From Candidatus Cloacimonadales bacterium (lineage in GTDB: Bacteria > Cloacimonadota > Cloacimonadia > Cloacimonadales > DAONDQ01): a stretch of 64,000 nucleotides of DNA. The notes beneath the pieces were generated by a model that made no database searches, was not told where the DNA came from, and worked only from the letters and a program-made list of their open reading frames with translations. Both the position numbers and the translations under genes were made by a program. Of this stretch, positions 42,432 through 59,071 are shown piece after piece. Location of the stretch: the NCBI GenBank assembly GCA_963662275.1, contig OY759316.1:3680001-3744000 (forward strand). The letters run 5' to 3'. Position 1 is the first letter of the stretch. Each line of letters starts with the position of its first letter.

Positions 42432-42446
42432 GTTATGCCCCCTTGC

Positions 42447-43424
42447 TTAAAACTTCACCAGTTTTTCGATTTCGTAAGCAATTCGTTCTGGTGGAATGAT
42501 GTAAAAATGTTCACCAAGCGGAAGAGGAACGATCGTATCGAACCCGCTTAATCGAACCGGTGGCGCTTCCAAGTGCAGAAATGCCTCTTCAATACAAATC
42601 GTCACTAATTCAGCTCCGGCACCAAAGCGTGAAGGGGCTTCTGAAACGATGAGGACACGTCCTGTTTTTTGAACCGATTGCCGAATGGTATCCCGATCAA
42701 TGGGATAAATCGTACGCAGATCGATGAGTTCAACGGAAATACTCTTATCCTTCAGCAAGACCATTGCCCGTTGTACTTCCCGAACCATGGCGCCATAGGC
42801 AATCACGGTGATGTGTTCACCTACATTCAGTACATTTGCTTTGCCGATGGGGATGGTGAACTTCTCTTCCGGTACTTCCTGTTTAATAGCTCTATATAAG
42901 CGTTTAGGCTCCATAAATATGATAGGGTCTTCAGACTCAATAGCGCTGATGAGCAGACCTTTGGCATCGTAAGGAGTGGAGGGAATCACGACCTGCAAGC
43001 CCGGGTATTGGGCAAAGAGAGCTTCAGGGCTTTCAGAATGGTGCTCCAAAGCATTGATGCCTCCGCCATAGGGAAAACGAATGACCATTGGAGCATGGAA
43101 CTTGCCTCTTGAACGGTTGCGTATCCTTGCCACATGTGAGAATATCTGGTTGAGTGCCGGATAGGAAAAGCCATCGAACTGCATCTCCACAATAGGTCTT
43201 AAACCGGCGATAGCCATACCTAAACCGCTACCTGCAATGGCTGCCTCTGCCAGGGGAGAATCGAAGACACGTGCTTCACCGTATTTCTTCTGGAGATTTT
43301 CAGTCACACGGAACACACCGCCTTCCACACCTACATCTTCACCAAAAAGGATGATCTTCGGATCTTCAGCAAGTTTGATATCAAGAGCATTATTGATTGC
43401 CTGTACTAGATTCATGACGCTCAT
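42447..43424 (-). CDS. pdhB: 2-oxoacid dehydrogenase E1 beta
   Basis: GEDVGVEGGVFR, DSPLAE, EMQF, EHHSES. Pyruvate versus branched-chain substrate not resolved. Confidence 0.9.
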   Translation of the reverse strand: MSVMNLVQAINNALDIKLAEDPKIILFGEDVGVEGGVFRVTENLQKKYGEARVFDSPLAEAAIAGSGLGMAIAGLRPIVEMQFDGFSYPALNQIFSHVARIRNRSRGKFHAPMVIRFPYGGGINALEHHSESPEALFAQYPGLQVVIPSTPYDAKGLLISAIESEDPIIFMEPKRLYRAIKQEVPEEKFTIPIGKANVLNVGEHITVIAYGAMVREVQRAMVLLKDKSISVELIDLRTIYPIDRDTIRQSVQKTGRVLIVSEAPSRFGAGAELVTICIEEAFLHLEAPPVRLSGFDTIVPLPLGEHFYIIPPERIAYEIEKLVKF

Positions 43425-44509
43425 TTTGCCCCCTCAGTTGCTGCAATAAATTGCTCGTATGCTTTTCTCTGGCGTTTGAGTTCATCAGGAACATAGCTAT
43501 ATAAATGGTTAAACACATCATCGAGCGGATAGGTAGAATAGTTTTCTGCTATTTCGAATTCAGTTTCCACCAGCTTTTGATATGTTTGAACCAACTCATC
43601 TTCATCTGCTTGCGTGATCAATTTCTTTTCCTGCAGGTACAAACGTAGGCGAAGAAGCGGGTCTCTTTCCAGCCACAGCTTTTCTTCTTCACCTGTCCTA
43701 TAGCGTGTGGGATCATCCGAGGTGGTATGAGCTCCCTGCCGATAAGTGACAGCTTCTATCAGAACAGGTCCTTTTCCGCTTTCCGCATAAGCCCTGGCTT
43801 CTGTCAGGACATCCAGCATGGCTAAGTAGTCATTGCCATCGACCAGGATACCTGGAATGCCATATGCAATCGCTTTGCTGGCAAGATTGATGGAATTTGT
43901 CTGCTTCTTGATGGGCATGGAGATAGCAAACTGGTTATTCTGGATGATGCAGATCAGGGGCACTTTCCAGACCGAAGCGAAGTTAATTGCTTCATGGAAA
44001 TCACCTTCCGATGTTCCACCATCACCCACAAAGCCAAAGACAACTGACTTTTCCTGTTTGAATTTCATGGCATAAGCGATACCGGTGGCATATTGAATTT
44101 GAGAGGCAATGGGAACAGCCGAAGGGAGTAATCGATTCGCTTTTTCAAAACGGGAACCACGTTCATCACCCCGATAATACATGAAAATCTCATGTAATTC
44201 TGCACCCTTTGCCAACCAAGCTCCCATTTCACGAAAGGCTGGAACCAGCCAATCTTCTTCGCTGATGACCTTCCCCGCTGCGGCTGAAATGGCTTCCTGC
44301 CCAAGATTGGGAGGGAACGTGAACATCCTGCCCTGCCGTTGAAAGCTGACTGCCATCAGGTCAGCAGTTCGGTTGAAAAGCATTGTTTTGAATGCGTCTA
44401 AAAGTAGTTTATCATTGAATTCAAATTGAGTTGGAGAGGCAACTATCTTACCTGTTTGATCCATGATTTGGATCATTTCATTCTTGAGGGGATCGTAGGT
44501 CTCGATCAT
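43421..44509 (-). CDS. pdhA: 2-oxoacid dehydrogenase E1 alpha
   Basis: QRQGR, GQEA, GDGGTSEGDF...NNQFAIS, HTTSDDP. Confidence 0.9.
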   Translation of the reverse strand: MIETYDPLKNEMIQIMDQTGKIVASPTQFEFNDKLLLDAFKTMLFNRTADLMAVSFQRQGRMFTFPPNLGQEAISAAAGKVISEEDWLVPAFREMGAWLAKGAELHEIFMYYRGDERGSRFEKANRLLPSAVPIASQIQYATGIAYAMKFKQEKSVVFGFVGDGGTSEGDFHEAINFASVWKVPLICIIQNNQFAISMPIKKQTNSINLASKAIAYGIPGILVDGNDYLAMLDVLTEARAYAESGKGPVLIEAVTYRQGAHTTSDDPTRYRTGEEEKLWLERDPLLRLRLYLQEKKLITQADEDELVQTYQKLVETEFEIAENYSTYPLDDVFNHLYSYVPDELKRQRKAYEQFIAATEGAK

Positions 44510-44627: not shown

Positions 44628-45167
44628 CCACAAGAACCCCAATTATTAGCAACGTATTTACCCGCCATAGAATCTTATATTTCTGCACTATCAGTAGTAG
44701 GAAACACAGCATTTTTGTCAGATATTTCGTTAGGTTTATTGATTGTCGACATTTCTAACCCCCAAGAACCTCAGCTTATAGGTTCCTATATTCCTTCCGG
44801 ATATATCAAAGAGATTGAATCAAGAGATAATCTTCTATATATAATTGAAAACCGTGATTATTTGAAAGTGATCGATGTCTCCAATCCTAATGATCTACAA
44901 ATACTTGGTTCATATGAAACAACTGGCATTGCTCAATCGCTTGCTGTCATTGAAGAGACAGCTTATATCGTAAGCAGCAGTCCAGATTTACTATGTTTGG
45001 AAGTCCTGGATGTTTCTAATCCTGATTTGCCCATCATACTTTTTGATTATCCATTTCATTCTACAAGTCAGATAACAGGAGTATATATTAAAGATAATTA
45101 TCTATTTGTTATGGAACTGATTATGAAGGAAAAGCAATTGCTTCCGGAGTGTATTTTGCTAAGCTAA
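44628..45167 (+). pseudogene. LVIVD-repeat protein fragment
   Basis: Three to four LxIVDxSNP repeats. The frame opens after TAA at 44586 with no ATG or signal peptide, and the 3' end degenerates. Confidence 0.65.
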
Positions 45168-45238: not shown

Positions 45239-45556
45239 TTATGCTTGCTGCAGAATATTGATCAGCACTTCCTTGTATTTTTCGAAAGCTCTTCTTCCTC
45301 GATTCGTGAGACGTAATAGGGTATGGGGTACCCGGTTTACAAATTCCTTCATAATCTCGACATAGCCGTTTTGCTCTAATTTCAGTAACTGTGCCGAAAG
45401 ATTTCCTTTAGTCAATCCTGTTTTGCGTAACATGTAAACAAAATCTGCTTTATCCACGACATATAAATATAGCATGATGTTCAGTCGAGCTGGTTCATGG
45501 ATGATCCGATCAATATCTTCAATACTGGTCTCTGTAAGATTGTCTTCAGTTCTCAT
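45239..45556 (-). CDS. Winged-HTH transcriptional regulator (HTH_34/MarR-like)
   Basis: IIHEPARLNIM...LTKGNLS...LEQNGYV...LTNRGR. Confidence 0.85.
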   Translation of the reverse strand: MRTEDNLTETSIEDIDRIIHEPARLNIMLYLYVVDKADFVYMLRKTGLTKGNLSAQLLKLEQNGYVEIMKEFVNRVPHTLLRLTNRGRRAFEKYKEVLINILQQA

Positions 45557-46151
45557 CTTTCATCACCGGATATACTATCATGAATTTAAGCAACTGGATA
45601 ATTCCGAAGATAAAATCGAAAACACCTAAGATAAAAATGTAAAACATCAGATTGTTATGATGGAGAATGCCAGAATATATTAAAGCAATAAGAGCAAGAA
45701 TTATTACCCCATAAAGAAGAAAGCCTATGTTTTGTTCACAGAAATAACGGTATAAGAGCAAAATTATGATGAAGAGGGCGATACTTATCATTATCCCAAG
45801 GTGCATGTTCTTTTCAATGGCAGGTGAGATACTGTGACTTTGGAAATACAGCATTAAACCAAATCCCAAGATTAGTAGAATGGCTATGAAAATTTGGATG
45901 AAACTCCTGGAAGTTTTCTTATCACTAATTTCTGCATAACCAATCCTGGGGTAAGTGTAACTTTTTTTTAAGATGGATATTAATACAGGAATAAATGGAA
46001 TAAAGATTACAGCAAAATTCATTTTTCCTATTGAACCGAGAATTGCTATTATCATCAGATACAAACCAACAACAATATGAGATATGCCATCCTTATGCTT
46101 CTGTTCATGTAATACATCGATTCTAACTTGAGTAAGAAAGTCATTTTTCAT
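45546..46151 (-). CDS. Integral membrane protein coupled to the HTH gene
   Basis: About six hydrophobic segments, YPRIGY motif, overlaps the regulator start. Confidence 0.7.
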   Translation of the reverse strand: MKNDFLTQVRIDVLHEQKHKDGISHIVVGLYLMIIAILGSIGKMNFAVIFIPFIPVLISILKKSYTYPRIGYAEISDKKTSRSFIQIFIAILLILGFGLMLYFQSHSISPAIEKNMHLGIMISIALFIIILLLYRYFCEQNIGFLLYGVIILALIALIYSGILHHNNLMFYIFILGVFDFIFGIIQLLKFMIVYPVMKDEN

Positions 46152-46359: not shown

Positions 46360-46608
46360 ATGAGGTCTGCAAAAGTCAGTAATCTGGCTATCAGTGACAA
46401 CGGCTTCGTTTTTGATCCGACAACCGGTTACAGCTATAATACAAATGAGATGGGCTTTTTTCTCTTGAAATTAATGGAGGAAGGATTCGAACAGGATGAG
46501 ATCATTACCCGTATCATGGATGAATATGAAGTAAACCATGACACTTTGGAACGTGACCTAGATTTTTTCAGCCTGCAGATGAAATCTCTTGGTTTGCTGG
46601 AAGACTAA
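46360..46608 (+). CDS. Stand-alone PqqD/RRE-family protein
   Basis: 82 aa; beta-rich GFVFDPTTGYSYNTNEMG then helices ...EYEV...ERDLDFF...LGLL; RBS AGGAGG. Confidence 0.85.
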   Translation: MRSAKVSNLAISDNGFVFDPTTGYSYNTNEMGFFLLKLMEEGFEQDEIITRIMDEYEVNHDTLERDLDFFSLQMKSLGLLED

Positions 46609-46776
46609 GATGTCATTTTCTTTAGCTCATTTCAAAGGCACGATCGCTGTCAGTGGTCTGAAAACCGGAGATAATCCGCAGCCGGGTGTACCTGTTATCC
46701 GTAGTATCCGCAATGCTGGATTCGAAGGTAAAATCATTGGTTTGATCTATGATTCGCTTGAATCAGGTATCTATGT

Positions 46777-48637
46777 GAGACTGTTCATGAAGTTATTCAT
46801 AATATTCAATAAGTTAGAAAGTAGCAAGTTGAAAAAAGTGGTCGAAACGGTCATAATTTAACATACCTTCCAGAATTGACAGATAAGCTCTGCTAAGGAC
46901 ACCAAATCACAAGTTAAGCTTTTTGACTAAAATTGAAAAACACGCGATTATAAGTAATGTTTCGAAGCCGTTTCTGACTAAATGTGTAGTTAAAATCATA
47001 TAAAATAGTTCTTTACAAGTTTTTTGCTATAGCTTCAATGGCATTTGTTACCTGGTAACAAAAGGGAGGATATTATGACAAAAAAACACTCCAATTCAAG
47101 AAGCGGTAAGTGTTAGTCATGAAAGTAACCAATACCATGTAAGTATTAACGTACCATTTTCATTCACTTTGCCTGAGACAACATCAAACCACAAGTTCTT
47201 AATAGCGTTTCTACGCTTATTAGTAGGAATAGGCGGAGACAACCTCCTTACACTTCAGCAAATAGCTGATCTGTTTAACTACGCAGACCGCAGGAATGTA
47301 CATAATTTCTGGCAAGAGTTTGAGCAGCATGGTCATGATATCCTGGCATATTTAAGCCGGAAAGTTGACCTGCTGGAGTGTATTCCTCAGATCGAGAATT
47401 TTGTTATCAATAACCTGCTTTTACCTTTAAATGTCATGTATCAGGAGTTCATCAGCCATCATGATTTTAAAATGTCCTATACCACTTTCTGCAAATATGC
47501 TTCTCAGGTCAATTCTCTGTCTGTAGTTAAGCAAGCTCAGAAGCTTCTTCTGAAAAAGACAGTAGGCGGTGATGCTGTACATCTGCTGAAACTGCTTGCC
47601 GGTCAGCAGAATACACCTGTTATCTGTGACAGACTCCTGGAACAAATGAAGACTGCTAAAGGCAATACATCCCATAGAACCGCCGATGCAAAGCCGTTCC
47701 ATAGTCTGGAACGCAAGAACCTGTGTCTGCTGGTACATTACCTGGTTGGAAGCGGTATGAACTTCGAGACGATAGCTTTGCTGCTCAACACCTGTAAAGC
47801 TACAGTCTCAAATCTCTGGCATGAAATCGCTGACCTGCAGAGCCTGATTCTGAACTCAATCGGTAAGTGGAGCGGAAAGATCAGCATTGATGAGAAATAT
47901 GTGAAGATCAAAGGTATTCCGTACTATGTCATCAGTATTGTTGATTTTGTGACTCACATCCCTCTGTTTTGTGAGTTGTATCCTGACACAAAGAAAGAAT
48001 CATTCGAAGCATGTTTCAGAACCTTCAGACAGCTCTACAGGAAAGATCCAACCCTGATTGTCAGTGATGGCAGTAAATCGTTAGCAGTTGCAAGAAAAAC
48101 AGTGTTTCCAAAAGTCCATTACCAACTCTGTAAGTTCCATAAGATACGAAATCTCTTCAAAAGAATCAGTCAATGTCATCTCCCTGAAGACAGGGACAAG
48201 TTCTTTAAGAAGAGGATTATGAAAGCTTTCCGAAGAGAAACGGCGGGCGGAAGGAAAAAGGGTATCGCAAGCCTGACAGCTATTACTCCCCCAACCGCCG
48301 CCGAATACATCAAAAGCAATATCATTAGTGATTGGAGACACCTCAGCAAAGGTTTGACTTCCAATGTCTCTGAACGCTGGAACCGCAAAATCAAGAAGGT
48401 GACATCCGGTAGATTTGGACTAAAATCTGAAGAAACCACCCGCAACCTTGTGTTTTCGCTTTGGTTCAAAGAACTGGTCGATAAAGGTCAACCAATCATG
48501 CGTCAGGAATCACTTTTAGCAAGTTTAAATATCTCCCGCATATGTCAAGAAAATGTGGATTGGTCGCACTTAGACCACTTTTTCTCTGTCACTACCAATA
48601 AGGCTGCGTAAAATGGAGGTTAATTTTGAACAGTCTC
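46777..48637 (+). mobile_element. Insertion sequence, 1861 bp, copy 2
   Basis: TIRs GAGACTGTTCA / TGAACAGTCTC. TSD ATCTATGT at 46769-46776 and 48638-48645. Confidence 0.95.
47169..48611 (+). CDS. DDE transposase (protein identical to copy 1)
   Basis: Identical translation to 945-2387. Confidence 0.9.
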   Translation: MPETTSNHKFLIAFLRLLVGIGGDNLLTLQQIADLFNYADRRNVHNFWQEFEQHGHDILAYLSRKVDLLECIPQIENFVINNLLLPLNVMYQEFISHHDFKMSYTTFCKYASQVNSLSVVKQAQKLLLKKTVGGDAVHLLKLLAGQQNTPVICDRLLEQMKTAKGNTSHRTADAKPFHSLERKNLCLLVHYLVGSGMNFETIALLLNTCKATVSNLWHEIADLQSLILNSIGKWSGKISIDEKYVKIKGIPYYVISIVDFVTHIPLFCELYPDTKKESFEACFRTFRQLYRKDPTLIVSDGSKSLAVARKTVFPKVHYQLCKFHKIRNLFKRISQCHLPEDRDKFFKKRIMKAFRRETAGGRKKGIASLTAITPPTAAEYIKSNIISDWRHLSKGLTSNVSERWNRKIKKVTSGRFGLKSEETTRNLVFSLWFKELVDKGQPIMRQESLLASLNISRICQENVDWSHLDHFFSVTTNKAA

Positions 48638-49877
48638 ATCTATGTTGACGGTCTTGTGGATAAAGTTTACCAAATGCCCTATCCCTCAGAAGGGGCAGAG
48701 ACATTCATGGATAGGATGGATTACATCCTGTCACATGATAAGATTGATGTCATTATTCCAACCCTAGACTCGGAAATTATTACATATTTACGTCTGAAAA
48801 GTGAATTGATCAATCGTGGGGTGCATACTTTCCTACCTGAAGAAGAACAATTCATCCTAAGAGATAAAACAAAACTCAGCACATTCTTTCCCCCAAAAGG
48901 TATCGCTGTTCCTAAAACAATTATCATGAATGATCCGAGGCAAGCGAAAGATATCTCCAAGGACATACCCTTCCCTGTGATTGTGAAGGGACGATTTTAT
49001 GAAGCTTTTGCAGCAAACAATCCCGATGAAGTAGTTAAATTATACCACCTGATTGAACATAAATGGGGATTACCCATACTTGTTCAGGAGATTATTATTG
49101 GTGATGAATTCAATGTCGTGATCATCGGTGATGGCAAAGGTAAAACAATCGGTATGGTGCCTCAACGAAAACTGGTGATTACAGATAAAGGCAAGGGTTT
49201 CGGGGGAGTTGTTGTTAAGAATGAGAAACTGGAAGCATTTTCCAAGAAGATTATCGAGATTCTGCATTGGCGTGGTCCTTGTGAATTGGAAATCATGAAG
49301 GATAGTAAAGATGATTTTTATCTGTTAGAAATCAATCCCCGCTTTCCAGCCTGGGTAAGATTAGCAGAAGGTGCCGGTCAGAATTTACCCGCTGCAACTG
49401 TAGCCTTGGCTATGGGAGAAAAAGTGGAACCGTTCACCGAATGTAACACCGGAACTCTCTTTATTCGTCATGCAGAAGATTTAATTTCGAATATTGCAGT
49501 GATGGGAGAGATCTCTACAATGGGGGAACTCACGAAGTGCGAAGTGCGAAGTGCAAAGTCCGAAGCGGAAGAGAAGAATAAAACCACGAAACACACGAAA
49601 ATCACGAAAGAAGATAAGTGATAGAATATCTTGCAAAGATGTGTTCCCATTCCTCTCTTTGGATATAGAGAGGTGGTGGTTACTGAGCGTAGTCGAAGCA
49701 TAGTGTCGAAGAGTTTGAGAAACAGTATGTAAATACGAAGTTAAAGAAACTTAGGAAAGATGAAGAGCAGAACTTACTCTCGTCTAATATAGTTGACCCC
49801 CTTAATCCTCCCTTAACAAGAGGGTAAAAGAGCGGGGAACCAGATAAAGACCAGAATTAAAATAAAAGGTGTATAGA

Positions 49878-51227
49878 ATGAAAAAGTCATATAGTCCGCC
49901 CTATATTGAGAAGAACAATGCCGGATTCATGAATAAATTCGCTTATCGCAGCGTCGTGAATTACCAGGATAAAATTGAGAATATTCCGATTGAATCGATT
50001 GTTTCCAAATATGGTTCACCGGTATTTGTTTTTACTGAAGCTACAATTCGTAAAAGATACCGTCGCTTGCTCCAGTCCATAAGTATGCACTATCCGAATG
50101 TGGAAATCTCGTGGTCATATAAAACCAATTACCTGGGGGCAATATGCAAAATATTCCACCAGGAGGGTGCAAAAGCGGAGGTTGTGAGCGGATTTGAATA
50201 TGAAAAAGCACGTGATTTGGGAGTTGCCGGAAGAGATATTATTTTCAATGGACCTGGAAAAAGAGAGCATGAAGTACGCACTGCCATGGAAGATGGAGCA
50301 AAGATACATATCGATCATCTTGATGAATTATTCATGGTGGAAAGAATTGCCAGGGAACTTGGTAAAGTAGCGGAAGTTGCGATTAGAGTCAATATGGATA
50401 CAGGTATCTACCCTCAATGGTCACGTTTTGGCTTTAATTATGATAACGGTGAAGCATATCGAACGATCCAGCGCATCGTTGCCGGCAAGAAATTGAAACT
50501 CACAGGTCTCCATACACACATAGGTACTTTCATTTTAGATGCAAATGCCTATTATGTGGCTGCTTCAAAACTACTGGCATTGGCTCAGAAAGTAAAGGAA
50601 GATTTCCATTTTGCCATTTCCTATATCGACCTGGGTGGTGGATTTGCTTCTAATAACACATTACATGATTCCTATACACCCGGTGAATTCTCTGCCCCAT
50701 CATTTGATCAATATGCACGTGCCATTGGAACAGCGTTCAATGAATCCCAGTTTTCACGGGAAGAATCACCTCTACTCATCCTGGAATCAGGACGTATTCT
50801 TATCGATGAATCAGGTTATCTGATTGCCAGTGTGCTTGGGAAGAAGAACCTTCCAAGCGGAGAGAGAGGTATCATCCTGGATGCCGGTCTGAATATCCTG
50901 TTTACGACTTGGTGGTACAAACTCAAGATAACACCCACCCAGCCATTTAGTGGAACCTATCAGAATACTCTGTTCAACGGTCCTTTATGTATGAATATTG
51001 ATGTAGTTCGACCGCCTTTCAGCTTTCCTGATCTACAGACTGGAGATCACATTCTTGTCAATCCGGTTGGTGCTTATAATGTCACTCAATGGATGCAATT
51101 CATTGAATATCGACCGAATGTCATTCTGATTACAGAAACTGGTGATCTGGAACTCATTCGGGAAAAGGAAACACTCCAGGATGTAATTCAACGGGAACGA
51201 ATCCCTGAGCATTTAAGGAAAATCTAA
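49878..51227 (+). CDS. PLP-dependent group IV (DAP/Orn/Arg-type) decarboxylase-like protein
   Basis: SYKTN (PLP Lys), FNGPGK, HTHIG, DLGGG, ESGR, GPLCMNID, GAY. Substrate unknown, so not called lysA. Confidence 0.85.
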   Translation: MKKSYSPPYIEKNNAGFMNKFAYRSVVNYQDKIENIPIESIVSKYGSPVFVFTEATIRKRYRRLLQSISMHYPNVEISWSYKTNYLGAICKIFHQEGAKAEVVSGFEYEKARDLGVAGRDIIFNGPGKREHEVRTAMEDGAKIHIDHLDELFMVERIARELGKVAEVAIRVNMDTGIYPQWSRFGFNYDNGEAYRTIQRIVAGKKLKLTGLHTHIGTFILDANAYYVAASKLLALAQKVKEDFHFAISYIDLGGGFASNNTLHDSYTPGEFSAPSFDQYARAIGTAFNESQFSREESPLLILESGRILIDESGYLIASVLGKKNLPSGERGIILDAGLNILFTTWWYKLKITPTQPFSGTYQNTLFNGPLCMNIDVVRPPFSFPDLQTGDHILVNPVGAYNVTQWMQFIEYRPNVILITETGDLELIREKETLQDVIQRERIPEHLRKI

Positions 51228-51230
51228 GGA

Positions 51231-53399
51231 ATGTTATCATTCCGCGAAGTCGTCAGTAAAATTGCCTTCATACCGAAAGCGATATTGAACTCATACAGTA
51301 TTATTCTATTTTCATATAATCGCTGGATCGGTTTATTACTATTGTCCAGTACTTTTCTTGCTCCTATTGTAGGGATATCCGGATTGATTGGAGTCCTAAT
51401 CGCACTATTAACAGCAAGGTTACTAGGATTTGAACCTTGGAACTCAACCTCAGGGATCTTGTCATTCAATAGCCTTCTGACTTGCCTTGGAATCGGATTT
51501 TATTTTCCCGTCGCAAGCTATGGTCTTGGTGTGTTATATCTTTTACTTTTCATTGGATCGATATTCACATTATTGCTGTATATCACACTCGATAATTTGC
51601 TCTATGGCAAACTGAAAATACCCTCGATGAGTATGTCATTTTCCATCGTATCTATCTTTATGTGGCTGTTTTTAATGCGCATTGGACATAGTCAGCACTT
51701 GCCTCATAACCAGATGTACGTAATGAATTTCACACCTGTTGTACCTGTATTTGTGCTGAATTATTTCCAAAGTATAGGTGGTATATTCTTTCAACCCTAT
51801 TTCCTGACAGGACTATGTATCGCTGTTGCCTTGTTTTTCATTAGTCGGATAGGATTTCTACTATCAATCATTGGATATACCGTTGGGTATTTTTTCATCA
51901 TTCACTGGGGAGGTAAGGGAGCAAGCGATGTCTTTTATCCCGGTTTCAACATGATGTTGGCAGCTTTTGCGATTGGCGGAATCTTTCTTGTTCCAAGTAG
52001 AATATCCTATTTGTTAGCGATTATAGCTGCCTTCATTGGAATAGTCATTGCGTTCTCCATTGAAACATTATTTCGTGATTTCATGATTCCCCCATTTGCA
52101 TTGCCTTTCAATGTTACCGTTTATATGATAATCTATGCCTTACAATTACGTCTCAAGAATCGAAATCCCTATGTGAATGACTTTAATATACTTCACCCGG
52201 AATTAGCTTTGGAATATTACTTATCCCATATCAACCGTTTTGCCCGTTCAGGAGTTCCCCAGTTCTTCTTACCTATTACAGGTGAATGGACAGTGACCCA
52301 GGGAAATCATGGTGAAATCACACATAAATCAGATTGGGCATATGCCTGGGATTTTGAAATAATGGATCGGGAAGGTAAGAATTATCATCATCATGCCGAG
52401 GAAGTTGATGATTATTATTGTTATGGAAAAGCCGTTTATGCTTCTGCAGGTGGATACGTGGCAAAAATAGTGGATGGTATTGCAGATAATCGAATCAATC
52501 AAATCAATACCGAACAGAAATGGGGTAATTATCTGACCATACAGCACGGTATTGGTGTTTATTCACTTTACGCACATTTAAAATCGGGTAGTGTGAAATT
52601 GAAAGTCGGTGATTATATCCCGCAGGGAGAGAAAATTGCTTTGATTGGTAATTCAGGACGCTCTGCTGTACCGCATCTTCATTTTCATATCCAGACCACA
52701 TATGAAGCCGGCTCAAAAACTTTATTCAGCAATATAGCCAATTATAAGAAACGGGAAAAGGTCAGCCAATCACATTTTATCAGTTTTGGAAATCCGAAGC
52801 TAGCTGATTTGATTTCTCCCCTCATGGCAGAATTGAATTTGCAGGAAATTATGCATTTTCTGCTTTTCCAGAAATTATCCTTTGATGTTACCATTGGGAA
52901 ACGGCATTTTGAAGAAAATTGGGAAGTGGAAGTGACACTAATCGGAACATTTAATATCCACTCTGACCGGGGTAGTTATCTTGATTTCTCCGTTTACAAC
53001 GGTATATATAACGCTCTTGCATTCCGGGGTAATCGGAAAAGTGCCTTATATGCCTTCGCCTTATTGCTTTCCAGATATCCCTATGCAGAGAATCAAACGC
53101 TCGAGTGGAATGATACACCTTCATTCTCTGTAATGATGAAACCATTAATAAAACAAATTGTCTTATTGATTTCTTCTATTGGGAATCCTTTCAAATTTAA
53201 TACAAAATCAATTTCTCATTCGGAAGATAATAAACATGAAGTCGAATCTCTGACAACTGTAAGTTTTTTGGGAAAACTATTGATTAGCTACGAAGGTAGG
53301 ATTCAAATGGAAAAAAAGACTGGTATCGAGATGATCGATATTCACAAGAATGGAAAAGAATATTTACAAGCGCAAAGAATTCAGGATAAGAAATCCTGA
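51231..53399 (+). CDS. Urea-transporter-like membrane domain fused to an M23 peptidase
   Basis: About ten TM segments with FNSLL / PPFALPF, then H..WAYAWD, YAHL and GNSGRSAVPHLHF. Confidence 0.8.
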   Translation: MLSFREVVSKIAFIPKAILNSYSIILFSYNRWIGLLLLSSTFLAPIVGISGLIGVLIALLTARLLGFEPWNSTSGILSFNSLLTCLGIGFYFPVASYGLGVLYLLLFIGSIFTLLLYITLDNLLYGKLKIPSMSMSFSIVSIFMWLFLMRIGHSQHLPHNQMYVMNFTPVVPVFVLNYFQSIGGIFFQPYFLTGLCIAVALFFISRIGFLLSIIGYTVGYFFIIHWGGKGASDVFYPGFNMMLAAFAIGGIFLVPSRISYLLAIIAAFIGIVIAFSIETLFRDFMIPPFALPFNVTVYMIIYALQLRLKNRNPYVNDFNILHPELALEYYLSHINRFARSGVPQFFLPITGEWTVTQGNHGEITHKSDWAYAWDFEIMDREGKNYHHHAEEVDDYYCYGKAVYASAGGYVAKIVDGIADNRINQINTEQKWGNYLTIQHGIGVYSLYAHLKSGSVKLKVGDYIPQGEKIALIGNSGRSAVPHLHFHIQTTYEAGSKTLFSNIANYKKREKVSQSHFISFGNPKLADLISPLMAELNLQEIMHFLLFQKLSFDVTIGKRHFEENWEVEVTLIGTFNIHSDRGSYLDFSVYNGIYNALAFRGNRKSALYAFALLLSRYPYAENQTLEWNDTPSFSVMMKPLIKQIVLLISSIGNPFKFNTKSISHSEDNKHEVESLTTVSFLGKLLISYEGRIQMEKKTGIEMIDIHKNGKEYLQAQRIQDKKS

Positions 53400-53416
53400 T
53401 AGATTAAGGAGACATA

Positions 53417-54025
53417 ATGACTAAGATTTCTTCCATCATAATAATGGTGCTTTTCATAAGTAACATATTATTTGCTCAACCTGCAGCAACACTGCTTCAA
53501 ACATCTTATAATGCAGAAGCCGGCAATAATTTCCAGCTTGCTATTGAATCGATAAAAACCATAGAAAAAGACAACGATGCAGATCCATTTTATAAGTTGA
53601 GACTGGGATGGCTTTATTATAGCTCTGGTCAGTACCAATCTGCTTTGGATTACTATACGAAAGCATCTTCCCTTACAAATTGCCTGGAAGCTAAGGAAGG
53701 TATCATCAATTCTGCTTATTTGCTGGGAAAATGGGATAAAGTCATTGCTACCGGAAATCTGATACTAGATAAATTCCCCGATCATTATTCAGCATTAACA
53801 AAGACTGCTTATTCACAATATGTCCTTAAGAACTATGTAGCTGCTGCCAGTATTTACTATAAGTTACTGAATTATTATCAGTATAACTTGGAAATACGTG
53901 GTTATTACTTAAGCTGCCAGGTTCTTGCAGGTGATCTTGTCAATGCCAAGAGAACATTCCAACAATTGCAGCAATACAGTCCGAACAATCCTTTTATTCT
54001 TGAATATGCCAAGAAATTCCGTTGA
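53417..54025 (+). CDS. Secreted TPR protein
   Basis: Signal peptide; LRLGWLYYSSGQYQSALDYY and further TPR-like helices. Confidence 0.75.
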   Translation: MTKISSIIIMVLFISNILFAQPAATLLQTSYNAEAGNNFQLAIESIKTIEKDNDADPFYKLRLGWLYYSSGQYQSALDYYTKASSLTNCLEAKEGIINSAYLLGKWDKVIATGNLILDKFPDHYSALTKTAYSQYVLKNYVAAASIYYKLLNYYQYNLEIRGYYLSCQVLAGDLVNAKRTFQQLQQYSPNNPFILEYAKKFR

Positions 54026-54038
54026 TTAAGTTGAAGTA

Positions 54039-55388
54039 ATGAAATTTTCTTTGCTGCTTGTCGTGTTGTGTATTACCAGTATTTTACTTGCTCAATCTAA
54101 TGAAGCAGATGTCCAAGATAGTACCAGGTATATTCAAAACCCTGTTGAAAGTCCAGTTCAACATAATCTGCAAGCTTATGAGTTAATGATGGCTGGTCAT
54201 TATACTCTGGCACTCAAGGAATATGAAATTGCGTTAAAGCTCAATTCATCTGATTCCGTTGCCCGTGAAGGAATTCTCTGGGCTAATAATAGCCTTCATC
54301 GTTGGAAAAATACGATTACCACAGGTCAGAAATACCTGAAAAAGTTTGGTTATGATGCAAACATCGAATTATATCTTGCCTATGCATACTTTGCAAAAAC
54401 AGATTATCTACATGCCCGTCAGTGTTATCTATGGAGCTCTGAATACTTAGGCTGGTATGCAGCAAATACTTCTGGGATGGCTTGGACTTTTCGTATGTTA
54501 GGTGATCATACCAGGGAAAGGAAATTCACTCGAAAATGGGAAATGCTTGTTCCGGATTCACTGAAGGCAATTGTATCTCCCCCCCCCTATCCTCTATATC
54601 TTGGTCATGCTCAATATGCATATTCTACCTGGAATGATAACGAAAAGTCTTTTTTACAGCATTACACTCTTCGCTATCAGAATATTGCAGTTACTTGCGG
54701 AGTAGAAGATATTTGGCAGAATCATCATCTCCTAAGAACTGACTATCTTGCCTCCCTGAATTGGGAAACTCCTATAAGCAGCATGGAATGGAGAGGTAAC
54801 TGGCTGAAAGGGGATTATTCAAATTTATACCCGGCAAATTCGCATTTGATTAGTATCAGTAAACTACTTTATGTATCTAAAACACAGTTAGTTCCGGAAA
54901 TTAATGCAGGATACTCATATTATCCTGTTCTTTCGGTATCACAAATAGCCTTCAAACAATCCTATATTCGTGATTCCTGGTGGTTTAGTTATAGCCATGC
55001 TTTGATATATAAGGATTATGATAGTCCCGGTTTGGATTCCAGGAGTAATTGGGCTACCTGGGATGTTGGGACTAGGTTATTAACTAACCTAACTGTTGAT
55101 TTCTATACATCTCATGGTGATCGGACATTTTATGTGAGCAGGGAAATTGGTGTTGTTGATAACAACGTCTCAGCAAAACTGCAATATGGAGCATACTTAC
55201 AATACAATTACAGAATTTTAAATTTAGGGTGTAGTTACTCTAAATCAAAGCATAAGGATAATGAATATTCTTCAACTGTAAGTGTCAATCTCGGGATTGA
55301 TTATTCCCTGAAGGCAACGTATAACGCTGATCATGTTAAAGCTCATTCTGTAAAGCATGATGCCGAACATGCTGGAGTTAAATTCTAA
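54039..55388 (+). CDS. TPR + probable outer-membrane beta-barrel protein
   Basis: Signal peptide; N-terminal TPR helices; alternating aromatic beta-strand pattern in the C-terminal half; terminal Phe. Confidence 0.55.
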   Translation: MKFSLLLVVLCITSILLAQSNEADVQDSTRYIQNPVESPVQHNLQAYELMMAGHYTLALKEYEIALKLNSSDSVAREGILWANNSLHRWKNTITTGQKYLKKFGYDANIELYLAYAYFAKTDYLHARQCYLWSSEYLGWYAANTSGMAWTFRMLGDHTRERKFTRKWEMLVPDSLKAIVSPPPYPLYLGHAQYAYSTWNDNEKSFLQHYTLRYQNIAVTCGVEDIWQNHHLLRTDYLASLNWETPISSMEWRGNWLKGDYSNLYPANSHLISISKLLYVSKTQLVPEINAGYSYYPVLSVSQIAFKQSYIRDSWWFSYSHALIYKDYDSPGLDSRSNWATWDVGTRLLTNLTVDFYTSHGDRTFYVSREIGVVDNNVSAKLQYGAYLQYNYRILNLGCSYSKSKHKDNEYSSTVSVNLGIDYSLKATYNADHVKAHSVKHDAEHAGVKF

Positions 55389-58300
55389 TGAAAGTACGTA
55401 TCTTATTCTTTCTGTGTATCTTCTGCCTTCTCTTAGTCAGTTGCGATAAACGCCATAATAGTAAACTTCCAACCGGTATCTCTCCCTTTGATTATATTGA
55501 AAGTAACATCATTTCCGACAGTACAAATTACCTGGTTCGGAGCACAAATGATGATTCATATATTTTTATTAATAAAACAGCTATTTCCAGTAGTGTCTTG
55601 AAGAAAGGCGATTATCTTTGGTTTTCTCATACCCAGAGTTTTTCAGCCCGTGATTCCGTTGCCATTGCCGATGGGATGAGTCCTATTACAGATGCGCTTT
55701 ATTTCTATGTATATCGTGATTCCATTATGATTCCTATGCAATTCAACACAGGCATGGTCAAGCTCTTTACAAAACCTTTATCAGCTCTTTCCAATGTGAA
55801 AGTGTTGCGTTTTGATGAGAAGTATATTACTTCAGATCATGTGACAGGCATTGCTATGGATAAAGATAATGCCGTCATACCTGTTTCCAAGACAGGTTTC
55901 TTCCAATATTATCAACAGGGGGAAGTTTCCACCTCTGTGGAGTTCACAAGCAACGGTCAAAACTTTTATGCCTGGCATCCTGACTTTTCCACATTTCTTC
56001 CTGCTGATACACAATGGAATGAAAAACATCTGAAATTTACAGAACAAAGCACTTTAACATCCACGCAACAAACACAGGTGGAAACAGTCTTCCCTAGTTT
56101 CGCACAAACGGATAAGATTATTACCTATGAATTATCGGCTGCCGTTACGACAACTCTTTATCCTGAAATCAGGATGTGGAAACAGCCTGCCAAGTTTACT
56201 CCCCAAATGGTTGTATTCCAGCCCGGGACTACAAGTAGCATGTATAGCCTCGATACAGTGGATGATCTTTGGTTAGACCAGGTTACATATAAGGATATAT
56301 ACCTGAAATACCAGGGTACTTATTGCTTCGTCAGCCCTTTATCAGCACAAAACCAGATCACCATTCCTCTCGATGGCACCTTGTCTCAATTGTATTTAAA
56401 CAGGTTATATCTAGATTTGAGAGGGGTTACATTATCGAATGGAAGTCTCAACATCGATCTTTCAAATTACAGCAGAACACTTCCTGCTATATATAATGGA
56501 ACTATTTTCAATGTAACAGATCAAAAACTGCCAGTTACATTTTCTTTTATGCAAAATGGAAGTCCATTAACTGAATTACCGGATTCTCTTTGGATAGAAG
56601 TTGGTATTTCCCTTCCTTCTGGTACAGATACATCAAACCAAAAGTGGTTTGGATATCATTTGGATGATTCTTTGGAAGAATCATTGTACTATTCACTGGG
56701 TACATCTTATGATGCAACGCATTACTCAGTAGCAAATCAATATTTGTTTTTTCCCCTGGCGTTAAGTGGTTTATACTTTTTAGGATCAGATAGCAATACA
56801 TCCCAGTCTTTTACTATCCCTGTCATTCGTGAGTCGGCAATTTACCAGATACGGAATATGACTATCAGTTATGGCGGGGCAATTACGGCAAACTTGAGTC
56901 ATTATTACTTGAATCTGCAACCTCAAGTGGATTTAACACAACCCATATTCCAAGGGAAGCCATATGAGTTAAGCGGAACACAGGCTGCATTCAAGGCTGG
57001 TTTTTTCAAGAATAATGCCTGGACAGATGATGTTCCAAAAACACATCTTATCCAATATCGAAATAACAGACGAAGCCGTAGTAATCATATCCTTATTTAT
57101 AAAAATACTGATGACTGGCAAAAGACGGTTTTACTGACATCAGGTAATCAACTGGATGTAAGCCACTTTGTGCAAAGCGGAACAGATTACACGATTGGTG
57201 GCATCATGGGAGGCAATTACATCCTGACGAATGTGGATAACCTGTCTTCAGCAAGTATCGATTTTGCTCTGTACAGTCACATGTACATAGATTTTGGCTG
57301 CTTGCGAATTTCACGTGATACAGACAATGCAATTCCTTCCGATTATTATCTGCGTGCCCAGATTGATCGCTATATGCCGAGAAACGGCAGGACTTTACCT
57401 GCAATATTCCAGGGTGATATCTTTGATGTGAATGATCCCAAGATACCCGTTACGCTTTCCTATCAGCATAATGGTTCCACTGTAACCAGCCTTCCTGATT
57501 CCTTGTGGATGGAAGTGGGGATTTCACTACCATCAGGTACGGATACTACTGGACAAAGCTGGTTTGGATATCATTTGGACAGCACCATCGAAGAAGAATT
57601 CTATTCGACCCAAGCGACTTCTTATGATGCAAGTCACTATACAGTTGCAAATCAATTCCTGTATATTCCCCTTGCAGTAAGCGGTTTGTATTTTTTAGGA
57701 TCAGACAGCAACACTTCCCAGGAACATTTAATACCAGTTCTACGTGATGCGGCTTATTACCAGATGCCAAATATATCTGTCAGTTATGCAGGAGCTAAAA
57801 CAGCCGGTCTGAGTAAGTACTATTTGAATCTGCATCCGCAGGTTGATTTAACTCAGTCAATCTTTCAGAGTAAACCATATCAGTTGAGTAATACCATTGC
57901 TGCATTTCGTGCTGGGTTCTACCAGGGTAATGATGAGAATGCAACTTGGACTGAAACTGTACCCAGCAGTCACGTCATTCAATATAGAAGTTCAAGACGT
58001 AATCGCAGCAACCATATTTTAATCTACAGCAATACGGATAACTGGCAAAAAGTGTTATTGCAGAAAAATGGCAGCCAGATCGATGGAACACATTTTATGC
58101 AAAGCGGTTCAGATTATACGATTGGTGGTATTTTGGGAGGTACTTATCTATTGGCAAATGTGGATAATATAGCTGCCACTAACATCAATTTCGCTTTGTA
58201 CAGCCATATGTATCTTGATTTTGACCGAGTGAAGCTGTTTCATAGTTCTTCTGATGCTGAGCCAACAGGATACTATCTGAATACCAGGATTGACAATACA

Positions 58301-59071
58301 TTCCCTGATAGCCGAAATATCATTCAAAATCAATATCAATTACAGCAGACATCCTGGAATTACCATATTACTGCATATAATGCCACTTCACAGATTGATG
58401 CAGCCTTTTTGAAGCAGTATCAGCCTGTACTGTATTTTGCTACAACACAAAGGAACACGCCAACATTGGTGCACTTAAATCAAGACCAGGATTACCGTAT
58501 CTACACCTATCCTCAAGGTACAACACTAACTGCATATAATTATATTTCAATTAACGGATTTGAAGAAGTGATACCAAGCTACAATGGCGACTATTGCTCT
58601 TTCAGTGATTCCAGCCCACATACTGCCATCACTACGCTAATACATGCCACGACAACGGAATTAATTACTTCATTATACCAGGCACAATTTATTTTACCCG
58701 CTTTTTTTGTTAATACTGCTTTTCCAGTCGGGTATAAAATAAACCTCTCTGAAACAACAGAAGCGCCCGTGGGTACCCAGTTATTGTCCGGTTATCGCTT
58801 AATTTTTCTTGATAATAACAATAATCCTATTGATTTGAATCTTATTCAAGACTATGTGACTACGAATTACCCTTATATGTATCTGCCTTTCCCCCCAGCG
58901 AATGTTTCCAGCAACTTTCATGTACGATATATCAATGCCTTGGGAGTCAGTACTGATTATTCGAGAGTAACAAGTTTCAGCGGGACTTCCTCTACGGAGT
59001 TTATAGTAGTTGGCAATTGTGTTGTTTTGCCTGTTAATGCAAGGGGAAGATACCTGATTTCTTCTAATTAA
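55388..59071 (+). CDS. Large lipoprotein with a ~305-aa internal duplication
   Basis: Lipobox LLVSC; repeats begin RTLPAI at 56474 and 57389. Confidence 0.75.
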   Translation: MKVRILFFLCIFCLLLVSCDKRHNSKLPTGISPFDYIESNIISDSTNYLVRSTNDDSYIFINKTAISSSVLKKGDYLWFSHTQSFSARDSVAIADGMSPITDALYFYVYRDSIMIPMQFNTGMVKLFTKPLSALSNVKVLRFDEKYITSDHVTGIAMDKDNAVIPVSKTGFFQYYQQGEVSTSVEFTSNGQNFYAWHPDFSTFLPADTQWNEKHLKFTEQSTLTSTQQTQVETVFPSFAQTDKIITYELSAAVTTTLYPEIRMWKQPAKFTPQMVVFQPGTTSSMYSLDTVDDLWLDQVTYKDIYLKYQGTYCFVSPLSAQNQITIPLDGTLSQLYLNRLYLDLRGVTLSNGSLNIDLSNYSRTLPAIYNGTIFNVTDQKLPVTFSFMQNGSPLTELPDSLWIEVGISLPSGTDTSNQKWFGYHLDDSLEESLYYSLGTSYDATHYSVANQYLFFPLALSGLYFLGSDSNTSQSFTIPVIRESAIYQIRNMTISYGGAITANLSHYYLNLQPQVDLTQPIFQGKPYELSGTQAAFKAGFFKNNAWTDDVPKTHLIQYRNNRRSRSNHILIYKNTDDWQKTVLLTSGNQLDVSHFVQSGTDYTIGGIMGGNYILTNVDNLSSASIDFALYSHMYIDFGCLRISRDTDNAIPSDYYLRAQIDRYMPRNGRTLPAIFQGDIFDVNDPKIPVTLSYQHNGSTVTSLPDSLWMEVGISLPSGTDTTGQSWFGYHLDSTIEEEFYSTQATSYDASHYTVANQFLYIPLAVSGLYFLGSDSNTSQEHLIPVLRDAAYYQMPNISVSYAGAKTAGLSKYYLNLHPQVDLTQSIFQSKPYQLSNTIAAFRAGFYQGNDENATWTETVPSSHVIQYRSSRRNRSNHILIYSNTDNWQKVLLQKNGSQIDGTHFMQSGSDYTIGGILGGTYLLANVDNIAATNINFALYSHMYLDFDRVKLFHSSSDAEPTGYYLNTRIDNTFPDSRNIIQNQYQLQQTSWNYHITAYNATSQIDAAFLKQYQPVLYFATTQRNTPTLVHLNQDQDYRIYTYPQGTTLTAYNYISINGFEEVIPSYNGDYCSFSDSSPHTAITTLIHATTTELITSLYQAQFILPAFFVNTAFPVGYKINLSETTEAPVGTQLLSGYRLIFLDNNNNPIDLNLIQDYVTTNYPYMYLPFPPANVSSNFHVRYINALGVSTDYSRVTSFSGTSSTEFIVVGNCVVLPVNARGRYLISSN

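Follow-up and report, generated by a model that had tools for sequence, protein, structure and literature searches.

A group of co-oriented genes was analysed at positions 46360-59071 of a 64,000-nucleotide stretch of the genome of a Candidatus Cloacimonadales bacterium (contig OY759316.1, positions 3,680,001 to 3,744,000; the whole stretch is referred to here as the window). The group, called the cassette below, encodes a PqqD-like protein of the RiPP recognition element type (RRE; RiPP, a peptide made on the ribosome and modified after translation), an ATP-grasp ligase, a pyridoxal phosphate (PLP)-dependent decarboxylase, a fusion of a urea transporter (UT) domain with an M23 peptidase domain, a secreted tetratricopeptide repeat (TPR) protein, an outer-membrane TPR-barrel protein and a lipoprotein. 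Nine + strand open reading frames (ORFs) occupy this region in the ORF list of the window, and the following features were assigned:

46360-46608, + strand: PqqD-like RRE protein, 82 amino acids (PF05402, E = 1.2e-10)
46610-46776, + strand: 5' piece of the ATP-grasp ligase gene, 55 codons and 2 nt, read from the sequence; 76% identity to residues 5-55 of the intact homologue from a related locus (L008)
46777-48637, + strand: insertion sequence (IS), 1861 bp, with a transposase ORF at 47169-48611; the duplicated 8-bp target is found at 46769-46776 and 48638-48645
48646-49621, + strand: 3' piece of the ATP-grasp ligase gene, with matches to PF15632, PF02655 and PRK12767-type models; 65% identity to L008 residues 49-356; listed as an ORF at 48626-49621 in which the first ~45 ligase residues are absent
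49622-49877, no strand: spacer of dispersed short repeats, recognised in a repeat search of the organism's own genome
49878-51227, + strand: fold-III PLP decarboxylase, 449 amino acids, a relative of FigC, BtrK and LysA by family-model scores
49878-49943, + strand: N-terminal YxxPxI tag, residues 1-22 of the decarboxylase, conserved in 70/70 relatives
51231-53399, + strand: fusion of UT and M23 domains (PF03253, E = 3.5e-49; PF01551, E = 1.2e-16)
53417-54025, + strand: secreted TPR protein, 202 amino acids, with TPR matches in Pfam and a signal-like hydrophobic segment at the N-terminus
54039-55388, + strand: outer-membrane TPR-barrel protein, 449 amino acids, by its AlphaFold2 (AF2) model; one weak TPR match in Pfam
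55388-59071, + strand: lipoprotein, 1227 amino acids, with a lipobox; its start shares one base with the barrel gene's stop

The six proteins that a preliminary description of the sequence had placed on this strand are all encoded there, as judged from ORFs and from Pfam and NCBIfam matches. The start of the ATP-grasp gene is ATG 46610, 1 nt past the PqqD stop, and the decarboxylase ORF, listed from 49869, likely starts at ATG 49878. The genes had been described as lying mostly a few base pairs apart, which does not hold for the ATP-grasp gene, split by the 1861-bp insertion; the proposal to express a repaired operon implies that the break had been noticed, although the break itself was left undescribed. 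The repeat-filled gap of about 250 bp is real (49622-49877), and its repeats proved to be dispersed over the genome, with no local array. The operon end set at 55388 had to be moved, as the 1227-amino-acid lipoprotein ORF continues from the barrel gene with a one-base overlap. Scans for promoters and terminators stayed at chance level (54 vs 47 ± 7.5 and 11 vs 8.9 ± 3.1, respectively).

Relatives of the fusion protein were collected from contigs representing one genome per species. An earlier single-protein scan of the same contigs revealed no relatives and an alignment-based scan was needed, which matched at least 600 stretches, of which at least 586 were verified to encode relatives of the fusion. 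The neighbourhood counts were made on the best 80 loci. Loci carried depositor labels of Cloacimonadota, Bacteroidota, Ignavibacteriota, Chlorobiota, Myxococcota, Desulfobacteraceae and several Proteobacteria. With phmmer run on all ORFs of the best 80 loci, the fusion was detected in 79, the decarboxylase in 74, the small TPR protein in 73, the ligase in 68 and the PqqD-like protein in 66, and the absences fell almost wholly at contig ends. Where at least 3 kb of upstream sequence was present, PqqD was found in 63/64 loci and the ligase and the decarboxylase in 64/64 each; with at least 2.6 kb downstream, the small TPR gene was found in 64/65 loci and the TPR-barrel family in 50/65, and some loci lacking the TPR-barrel have a barrel-only relative instead. 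Co-occurrence and order were strict in the fetched loci. The association of these genes is far beyond chance, and the view that they belong together stood, the cassette being kept as a unit across many phyla (63-64/64 for the upstream genes).

Lineages differ in the downstream part. A protein of about 444 amino acids is encoded between the fusion and the TPR gene in 42 loci, most of them with a Bacteroidota label, and it belongs to the same family as the 449-amino-acid barrel protein of the window (hhalign 97.7%, E = 1.7e-12). Ten loci, mostly labelled Ignavibacteria or Melioribacteraceae, encode after the TPR gene a 274-amino-acid protein matching the barrel half of the TPR-barrel family (hhalign 96.6%, E = 6e-10). 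The Cloacimonadota arrangement is TPR protein, barrel and lipoprotein, in that order. The lipoprotein family follows the barrel gene in Cloacimonadota only (11 loci by phmmer, 12 by clustering) and is a Cloacimonadota-specific add-on, the seventh coupled gene. The lipoprotein of the window is about 300 amino acids longer than its relatives of 908-973 amino acids owing to an internal duplication, seen as a tandem repeat with 61% identity over 293 amino acids; the 1227-amino-acid protein matched no Pfam or NCBIfam family, and neither a fold nor an ESM Atlas match was obtained for it. The fusion was present in 81/201 Cloacimonadota genomes sampled, and in 66/151 of those with a completeness of at least 90% and a contamination of at most 5%; the only other genome of the genus gave no match. 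The cassette is an accessory trait in Cloacimonadota.

The decarboxylase scored 215 bits on the LysA model TIGR01048 (cut-off 297.9) and 244.8 bits on the FslC model NF041039 (cut-off 500). Its best solved relative was FigC/FslC (7kh2, 214.6 bits), compared with 135.9 bits for the best diaminopimelate (DAP) decarboxylase and 117 bits for BtrK. It is therefore not a plain LysA, as had been anticipated: the score lies under the TIGR01048 cut-off and FigC/FslC is closer than any DAP decarboxylase. The fold-III (alanine-racemase-fold) set of a Schiff-base Lys, a PLP-stacking His, a Gly loop, Glu, Arg and a catalytic Cys is present, and the FigC catalytic residues are all kept (K82, R170, H214, G253-255, E303, R306 and C371) and invariant in 43 relatives. 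The roles of these residues are described in the accessible portion of PMC7857480, where docking implicates H357 and R387 of FigC in citryl binding. In the alignment, H357 corresponds to I374 and R387 to Q404 of the cassette enzyme, both invariant in the 43 relatives. Because the catalytic residues are invariant while the citryl residues are swapped for Ile and Gln, the decarboxylase is predicted to be an active enzyme of a conjugate-decarboxylating branch with a distinct pocket of its own. FigC and BtrK, the nearest characterised relatives, both use side-chain-tethered amino acids (for FigC, the same portion of PMC7857480; for BtrK, the name of the PDB entry giving the substrate). The ligase has distant named relatives only, with PRK12767-type 'CPSase-like' models far under their cut-offs and PDB 2pn1 matched at E = 9e-6. 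The only other LysA-like gene of the genome (99.97% complete; gene at G000:C1:1273185-1274258; L082:1414-2613) scored 171 bits against the LysA cut-off of 297.9, and a lysA exceeding this cut-off was not detected there.

About 22 residues of the decarboxylase precede the start of the LysA and FslC models. In 70 relatives this N-terminal tag aligned without gaps to the consensus K-K-x-[Y/F]-x-x-P-x-[I/V]...G...N-K-[F/Y]-G, with [Y/F], P, I/V and K20 each present in 70/70 sequences and G22 in 65/70. The motif resembles that of lasso peptide leaders, for which the part of PMC10368454 at hand gives YxxPxL at positions -17 to -12 and a core beginning with Gly1; with Y5 of the tag set at -17, the conserved G22 falls at +1 of the lasso numbering. 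The PqqD-like protein scored 24-28 bits on lasso-type PqqD models of NCBIfam, whose cut-offs are 70-80. The predicted complex of PqqD with the whole decarboxylase reached an ipSAE of 0.64, compared with 0.05 for the best control. This complex passed the mark set for ipSAE, which was attained by 116/157 solved complexes and 2/215 mismatched pairs, a calibration that is rough owing to the use of our own alignments. Three runs shared at least 67% of contacts, with a partner predicted local distance difference test (pLDDT) score of at least 79, and the predicted interface involved only residues 2-13 of the decarboxylase, placed with low expected error against the PqqD strand 24-32 and helix 54-79. 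From the conservation of the tag and this model, the ligand of PqqD appears to be the YxxPxI tag that the decarboxylase carries at its own N-terminus.

This prediction departs from the assumption that the RRE reads a RiPP precursor, its predicted ligand being a tag on the decarboxylase itself. The observation that no short precursor ORF lies near the operon held up: no family of ORFs of 12-75 amino acids was common within 1.5 kb upstream or downstream in the related loci with both PqqD and the fusion, and the sole large cluster of small ORFs merely mirrored the PqqD gene on the antisense strand. A role of the PqqD-like protein as an amino-group carrier of the LysW/LysX type, which has a conserved acidic acceptor at the C-terminus, was rejected, since neither the length nor the sequence of the C-terminus is conserved among 66 PqqD-like proteins. 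A search for longer proteins containing the PqqD domain gave a single match, to a protein with sigma-70 domains on a 1868-nt contig, which was not accepted as a real fusion; fused PqqD forms may be rare.

The AF2 model of the UT-M23 fusion (pLDDT 89.2, predicted TM-score (pTM) 0.82) comprised a UT-fold channel from residue 1 to about 320-335, an M23 domain at about 340-505 and a family-specific beta domain at about 520-722. In VIA-align comparisons, the UT part matched UT-A3, UT-B and dvUT with Z of 35-36 over 308-312 residues (root-mean-square deviation 2.5-3.7 Å) and the M23 part matched LytM domains with Z of 13-14. The C-terminal beta domain, formed by residues of about 535-720 in the comparison, had middling structural matches only (ApoB, lipovitellin and a Parabacteroides lipoprotein, Z 8-9.4), and no function was drawn from them. 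A single-sequence phmmer search of 1.84 billion representatives gave 37 matches to this domain at E <= 0.001, located at about 515-730 of proteins of about 700-740 amino acids or in shorter, possibly fragmentary proteins. Public annotations label the fusion 'urea transporter' or 'MepM/NlpD', and the UT+M23 architecture has been noted in print as a domain combination only (PMC12998343, 2026, accessible sections).

The conserved polar urea path of UTs is Q(Pb)-T(5b)-T(5a)-Q(Pa), according to the available part of PMC11589576. In the cassette family, the Pb position is occupied by G, A or S in 23/23 sequences, T5b by A, S or V in 22/23 and T5a by S in 23/23, and Q is found at Pa in 7/23. The UT domain scored 91 bits on TIGR03441, whose cut-off is 274.6. 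With the polar urea-recognition motif lost, urea uptake is unlikely, in agreement with the preliminary description. The M23 residues H365, D374, H449, H482 and H484 were present in 23/23 sequences; D374, H449 and H482-x-H484 align with active enzymes, unlike those of the degenerate EnvC, whereas the canonical first His is missing from its usual position and the invariant H365 stands nine residues ahead of the M23 Asp. Past residue ~305 the fusion showed no hydrophobic segment, and the UT part is rich in Lys/Arg at either end. Of the two halves of known UTs, the first makes up the urea pocket on the cytoplasmic side and the second that on the extracellular side (PMC11589576, same part). Since no membrane helix follows the UT, its ends are basic and the topology of UTs is known, the M23 and beta domains are most likely located on the cytoplasmic face of the channel, and any cut by M23 would therefore occur before or at pore entry. 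This is at odds with the suggested order of passage through the channel followed by trimming by M23.

The small TPR protein has its hydrophobic segment at residues 1-27. The last gene of the set originally delimited was expected to encode a barrel, and the AF2 structure prediction for 54039-55388 agreed with high confidence (pLDDT 90.4, pTM 0.80), yielding TPR helices at 39-176 and 14 beta-strands at 188-423, preceded by a signal peptide. In Foldseek, the full-length model matched BcsC first (E = 2.5e-11), with PelBC also matched, and the barrel part alone matched OmpG first (TM 0.69-0.78). A word-indexed search with the barrel-family alignment added two true relatives only, and the sequences from the loci were used for the structure model. 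A Slam-like reading, based on a TPR and 14-strand barrel protein encoded next to a lipoprotein gene, was also considered. The barrel proteins scanned match no Pfam family except TPR, and no solved Slam was present among the Foldseek matches listed, a result that does not exclude this reading.

The copy of the cassette in the window carries a recent lesion. By DNA reading, the ATP-grasp gene is cut after 46776 and its frame resumes across the target duplication at 48646; the ends of the IS are terminal inverted repeats and an 8-bp direct duplication flanks the element. The transposase scored above the cut-offs of PF10551 (MULE, 32.6 bits) and PF00872 (Transposase_mut, 27.7 bits) and under the 150-bit cut-off of the NCBIfam IS256 model (47.8 bits). 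Target duplications of 8-9 bp are usual for the IS256/MULE-type family, and the element combines a DDE transposase of the Mutator/IS256 group, inverted ends, an 8-bp duplication and multiple copies. The 4.38-Mb single-contig genome contains 39 matches to the 1861-bp IS, most of about 100% identity and a few of 98% or 92%, which looks like a recent burst of a MULE/IS256-like IS in this genome; a second copy lies inside the window at 919-2780 on the - strand (G000:C1:3680919-3682780). On either side of the insertion, contigs of two studies lead from the flank into the IS, and the depth of the IS is about 26-30 times that of the flanks. No contig bridging the insertion site without the IS was found in four sequencing runs, although contigs drop rare variants and a rare intact allele may exist in the population. 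Among the sequencing runs listed as containing this DNA, none was of RNA. The genome contains a single ligase gene, its two pieces corresponding to residues 5-55 and 49-356 of the intact L008 homologue. As the IS-split ligase gene is the only copy in the genome, the cassette copy in the window is probably dead, and the inactivation appears recent, because all other ORFs of the cassette are still open.

The 3' end of the ligase gene has also been altered. Homology to relatives stops near 49549, and the final 24 codons derive from inserted repeat DNA. A repeat unit of about 75 bp (about 49644-49721) has at least 8 genomic copies with 88-93% identity and a further repeat lies at about 49540-49614; short repeats occur at many genomic sites with 77-97% identity. 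The ligase and decarboxylase genes of relatives directly adjoin or overlap each other, unlike the repeat-spaced pair of the window.

Several described systems share parts of the cassette. Like the B1 protein of lasso peptide pathways, the cassette has a small PqqD-fold protein, with Y-x-x-P-x-[L/I] predicted to lie against the beta-3 strand and alpha-3 helix, and like B2 and C it has a peptidase and an ATP-dependent amide-forming enzyme in one operon. It differs from these pathways in carrying the motif on the N-terminus of a 449-amino-acid enzyme, with no precursor gene found, and in having a channel-fused M23 peptidase in place of the transglutaminase-like B2 and an ATP-grasp ligase in place of the asparagine-synthetase-like C; neither the B2-like nor the C-like family was detected among the operon proteins in Pfam or NCBIfam. 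The butirosin proteins BtrI, BtrJ and BtrK likewise combine an ATP-grasp ligase with a fold-III decarboxylase acting on a side-chain-held amino acid, whereas the cassette has no acyl-carrier protein and its small protein is of the PqqD fold with an unconserved C-terminus. The logic 'ligate first, decarboxylate the conjugate', known from FigA/FigC (FslA/FslC) in rhizoferrin and SbnH in staphyloferrin B synthesis, also fits (PMC7857480, in the portion cited above). Unlike FigA/FigC, the cassette has an ATP-grasp enzyme where the NRPS-independent siderophore (NIS) synthetase stands, and the FigC systems have no RRE, UT-M23 fusion or barrel. The channel shares its fold with UT/SLC14 proteins (dvUT, UT-A, UT-B) over about 310 residues and differs from them in lacking the polar Q-T-T-Q path and in being fused to the M23 and beta domains. 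As in the barrel protein of the cassette, a periplasmic TPR stack at the N-terminus precedes the C-terminal barrel in BcsC, PelB/PelC, PgaA and AlgK/AlgE; in the cassette, however, the TPR part spans only about 140 residues, 14 strands are modelled, there is no synthase partner and in some lineages the barrel has no TPR. Full-text literature searches revealed no description of the cassette among the papers listed, no paper pairing 'ATP-grasp' with 'urea transporter' and none combining three of urea transporter, M23, ATP-grasp and PqqD. The defining feature set of no described system was found in the cassette.

The reading that we prefer, tentatively and with a probability of about 0.45, is that intact copies of the cassette encode a membrane-docked, envelope-spanning biosynthetic complex which exports a small product. 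In the cytoplasm, the ATP-grasp ligase would join a carboxylate and an amine as an amide, one partner being a side-chain-tethered amino acid, and the FigC/BtrK-like decarboxylase would strip the alpha-carboxylate from the tethered amino acid. The PqqD-type protein would clamp the lasso-leader-like YxxPxI tag of the decarboxylase and thereby hold the enzyme complex at the membrane. On the cytoplasmic face of the UT pore, where the M23 and beta domains are placed, M23 would cleave an amide or a peptide bond, which may lie in the product or else at the conserved [F/Y]-G of the tag. The small product would then leave through the UT-fold pore, with its replaced urea-recognition residues, and the periplasmic TPR protein together with the 14-strand barrel, whose own TPR is optional, would carry it over the outer membrane.

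A number of points weigh against this proposal. Every step beyond gene content rests on inference, including the order of the steps, the direction of export, the M23 substrate and the product. The complex score may reflect likeness to solved RRE-leader complexes and not binding by this particular pair, and the calibration counts, obtained with our own alignments, hold only roughly. Hydropathy, charge distribution and the known UT topology make the cytoplasmic location of M23 the most likely one; the activity of M23 is uncertain, as the canonical first His of HxxxD is replaced by Ala, Arg, Lys, Gly or Gln. The urea-path residues were assigned from a UT-dvUT alignment of about 20% identity that is possibly one residue off. 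UT channels are passive and conduct both ways, so that import through the pore may also be considered, and a small solute has no obvious need for a dedicated TPR-barrel.

Two related schemes give the tag a more active part, and both were regarded as rather improbable. One is a protein-tethered assembly line: PqqD would grip the tag, M23 would cut at [F/Y]-G, the ATP-grasp enzyme would load an amino acid on the freed N-terminus of the decarboxylase, decarboxylation would follow in cis and M23 would release the amide into the pore and on to the barrel. The other is a self-templated, lasso-like maturation of the decarboxylase, with the tag as a true leader cut by M23 between [F/Y]21 and G22; the ATP-grasp enzyme, acting on the new N-terminus, would cyclise it onto an acidic side chain or load an amino acid, and the tail of the enzyme would serve as substrate or carrier arm. 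The placement of G22 (65/70) at +1, where the lasso core starts with Gly1 behind the YxxPxL of positions -17 to -12, speaks for such maturation, as do the invariant K20 and the [F/Y]21 preceding G22 without gaps in 70 sequences and the parallel of RRE, peptidase and ATP-dependent amide ligase with lasso B1, B2 and C. Many M23 enzymes cleave beside glycine, which was also counted in its favour. Cleavage of the tag is hypothetical, though, and no conserved acidic residue occurs at +7 to +9, the columns past G22 being variable; the peptidase and ligase folds differ from those of B2 and C, and no role would remain for the UT pore, TPR protein and barrel.

The envelope components might also work in the opposite direction, the barrel and TPR protein admitting a small amide or peptide, for example from the cell wall, the UT pore importing it and the cytoplasmic enzymes processing it. 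Such uptake or salvage is consistent with the passive, bidirectional nature of UT channels, with the cell-wall-related cousins of the enzymes (Ddl, LysA and DD-endopeptidases, each matched weakly in NCBIfam), with the resemblance of the barrel alone to the porin OmpG and with the failure to find a lysA above the cut-off in the genome. It was considered unlikely, as an ATP-spending ligase and a strictly co-inherited decarboxylase suggest synthesis, the whole-length TPR-barrel fold matches are the exporters BcsC and PelBC, the decarboxylase pocket is unlike the LysA type with a score under the LysA cut-off, and the RRE-tag link has no obvious catabolic place. The model of the preliminary description, a polyamide or peptide polymer threaded through the UT, shortened by M23 beyond the membrane and secreted in the manner of a synthase-dependent polysaccharide, seems very improbable. 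ATP-grasp enzymes can form repeated amide bonds, as do cyanophycin synthetase and RimK, and the TPR protein with the TPR-barrel resembles the AlgK/E, PgaA, BcsC and PelB modules. Against this, no polymerase, glycosyltransferase or c-di-GMP receptor was found among the representatives scanned of the conserved neighbour clusters, the modelled barrel has 14 strands compared with 16-18 in known exporters, the UT fold is a narrow pore of the small-solute type and, with no membrane helix between UT and M23, the peptidase is most likely intracellular. It is hardly credible that the cassette is a mere adjacency of ordinary genes for LysA, a urea transporter and an M23 hydrolase of the cell wall: the public names 'urea transporter' and 'MepM/NlpD' and the 215 bits on the LysA model would agree with this, but co-occurrence in 63-64/64 loci across phyla, scores under the curated LysA and urea-transporter cut-offs, the lost urea motif and a conserved tag absent from the LysA and FigC models do not. 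The remaining probability was assigned to mechanisms other than those considered.

If the envelope-spanning export complex is real, the use of an RRE to dock an enzyme via a built-in tag would be new, as would the re-purposing of a urea-transporter fold as a biosynthetic outlet with a peptidase on its inner face and a small dedicated TPR-barrel serving a non-polymer product. The cassette is common, so that a widespread and probably secreted metabolite may exist in anaerobic digesters, sediments and guts. For annotation, the names 'urea transporter', 'MepM/NlpD' and 'diaminopimelate decarboxylase' are wrong for the cassette genes. The present genome documents the inactivation of a cassette by a currently expanding insertion sequence.

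In the surroundings of the cassette, G+C falls from about 0.46 to about 0.35 near position 44000, where a 2-oxoacid dehydrogenase operon located at 41052-44509 on the - strand (E1 alpha, E1 beta, E2) ends. A 150-amino-acid LVIVD-repeat ORF at 44715-45167 is an apparent fragment of a larger beta-propeller protein. At 45239-46151 on the - strand, transcribed divergently, the gene of a winged-helix protein (HTH_34, E = 2.4e-26) overlaps that of a 201-amino-acid polytopic membrane protein without a family; since a relative of the winged-helix protein was found in only 1/80 related loci, this pair is probably outside the cassette. An AraC-family regulator precedes the cassette in 14 Bacteroidota-type loci. 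In Ignavibacteria-type loci, proteins with a type-IX sorting domain, some with FG-GAP, are encoded directly upstream of the PqqD gene, and in some Cloacimonadota loci such proteins are encoded downstream of the cassette (examples of these neighbours are L015:6431-7342, L028:6386-7237 and L002:14804-16583). In the window, a right-handed beta-helix ORF (60086-62230) overlaps, in a different frame, an ORF for a type-IX C-terminal sorting domain (62191-62451), and the two ORFs, spanning 60086-62451, are probably one cargo gene with a frameshift.

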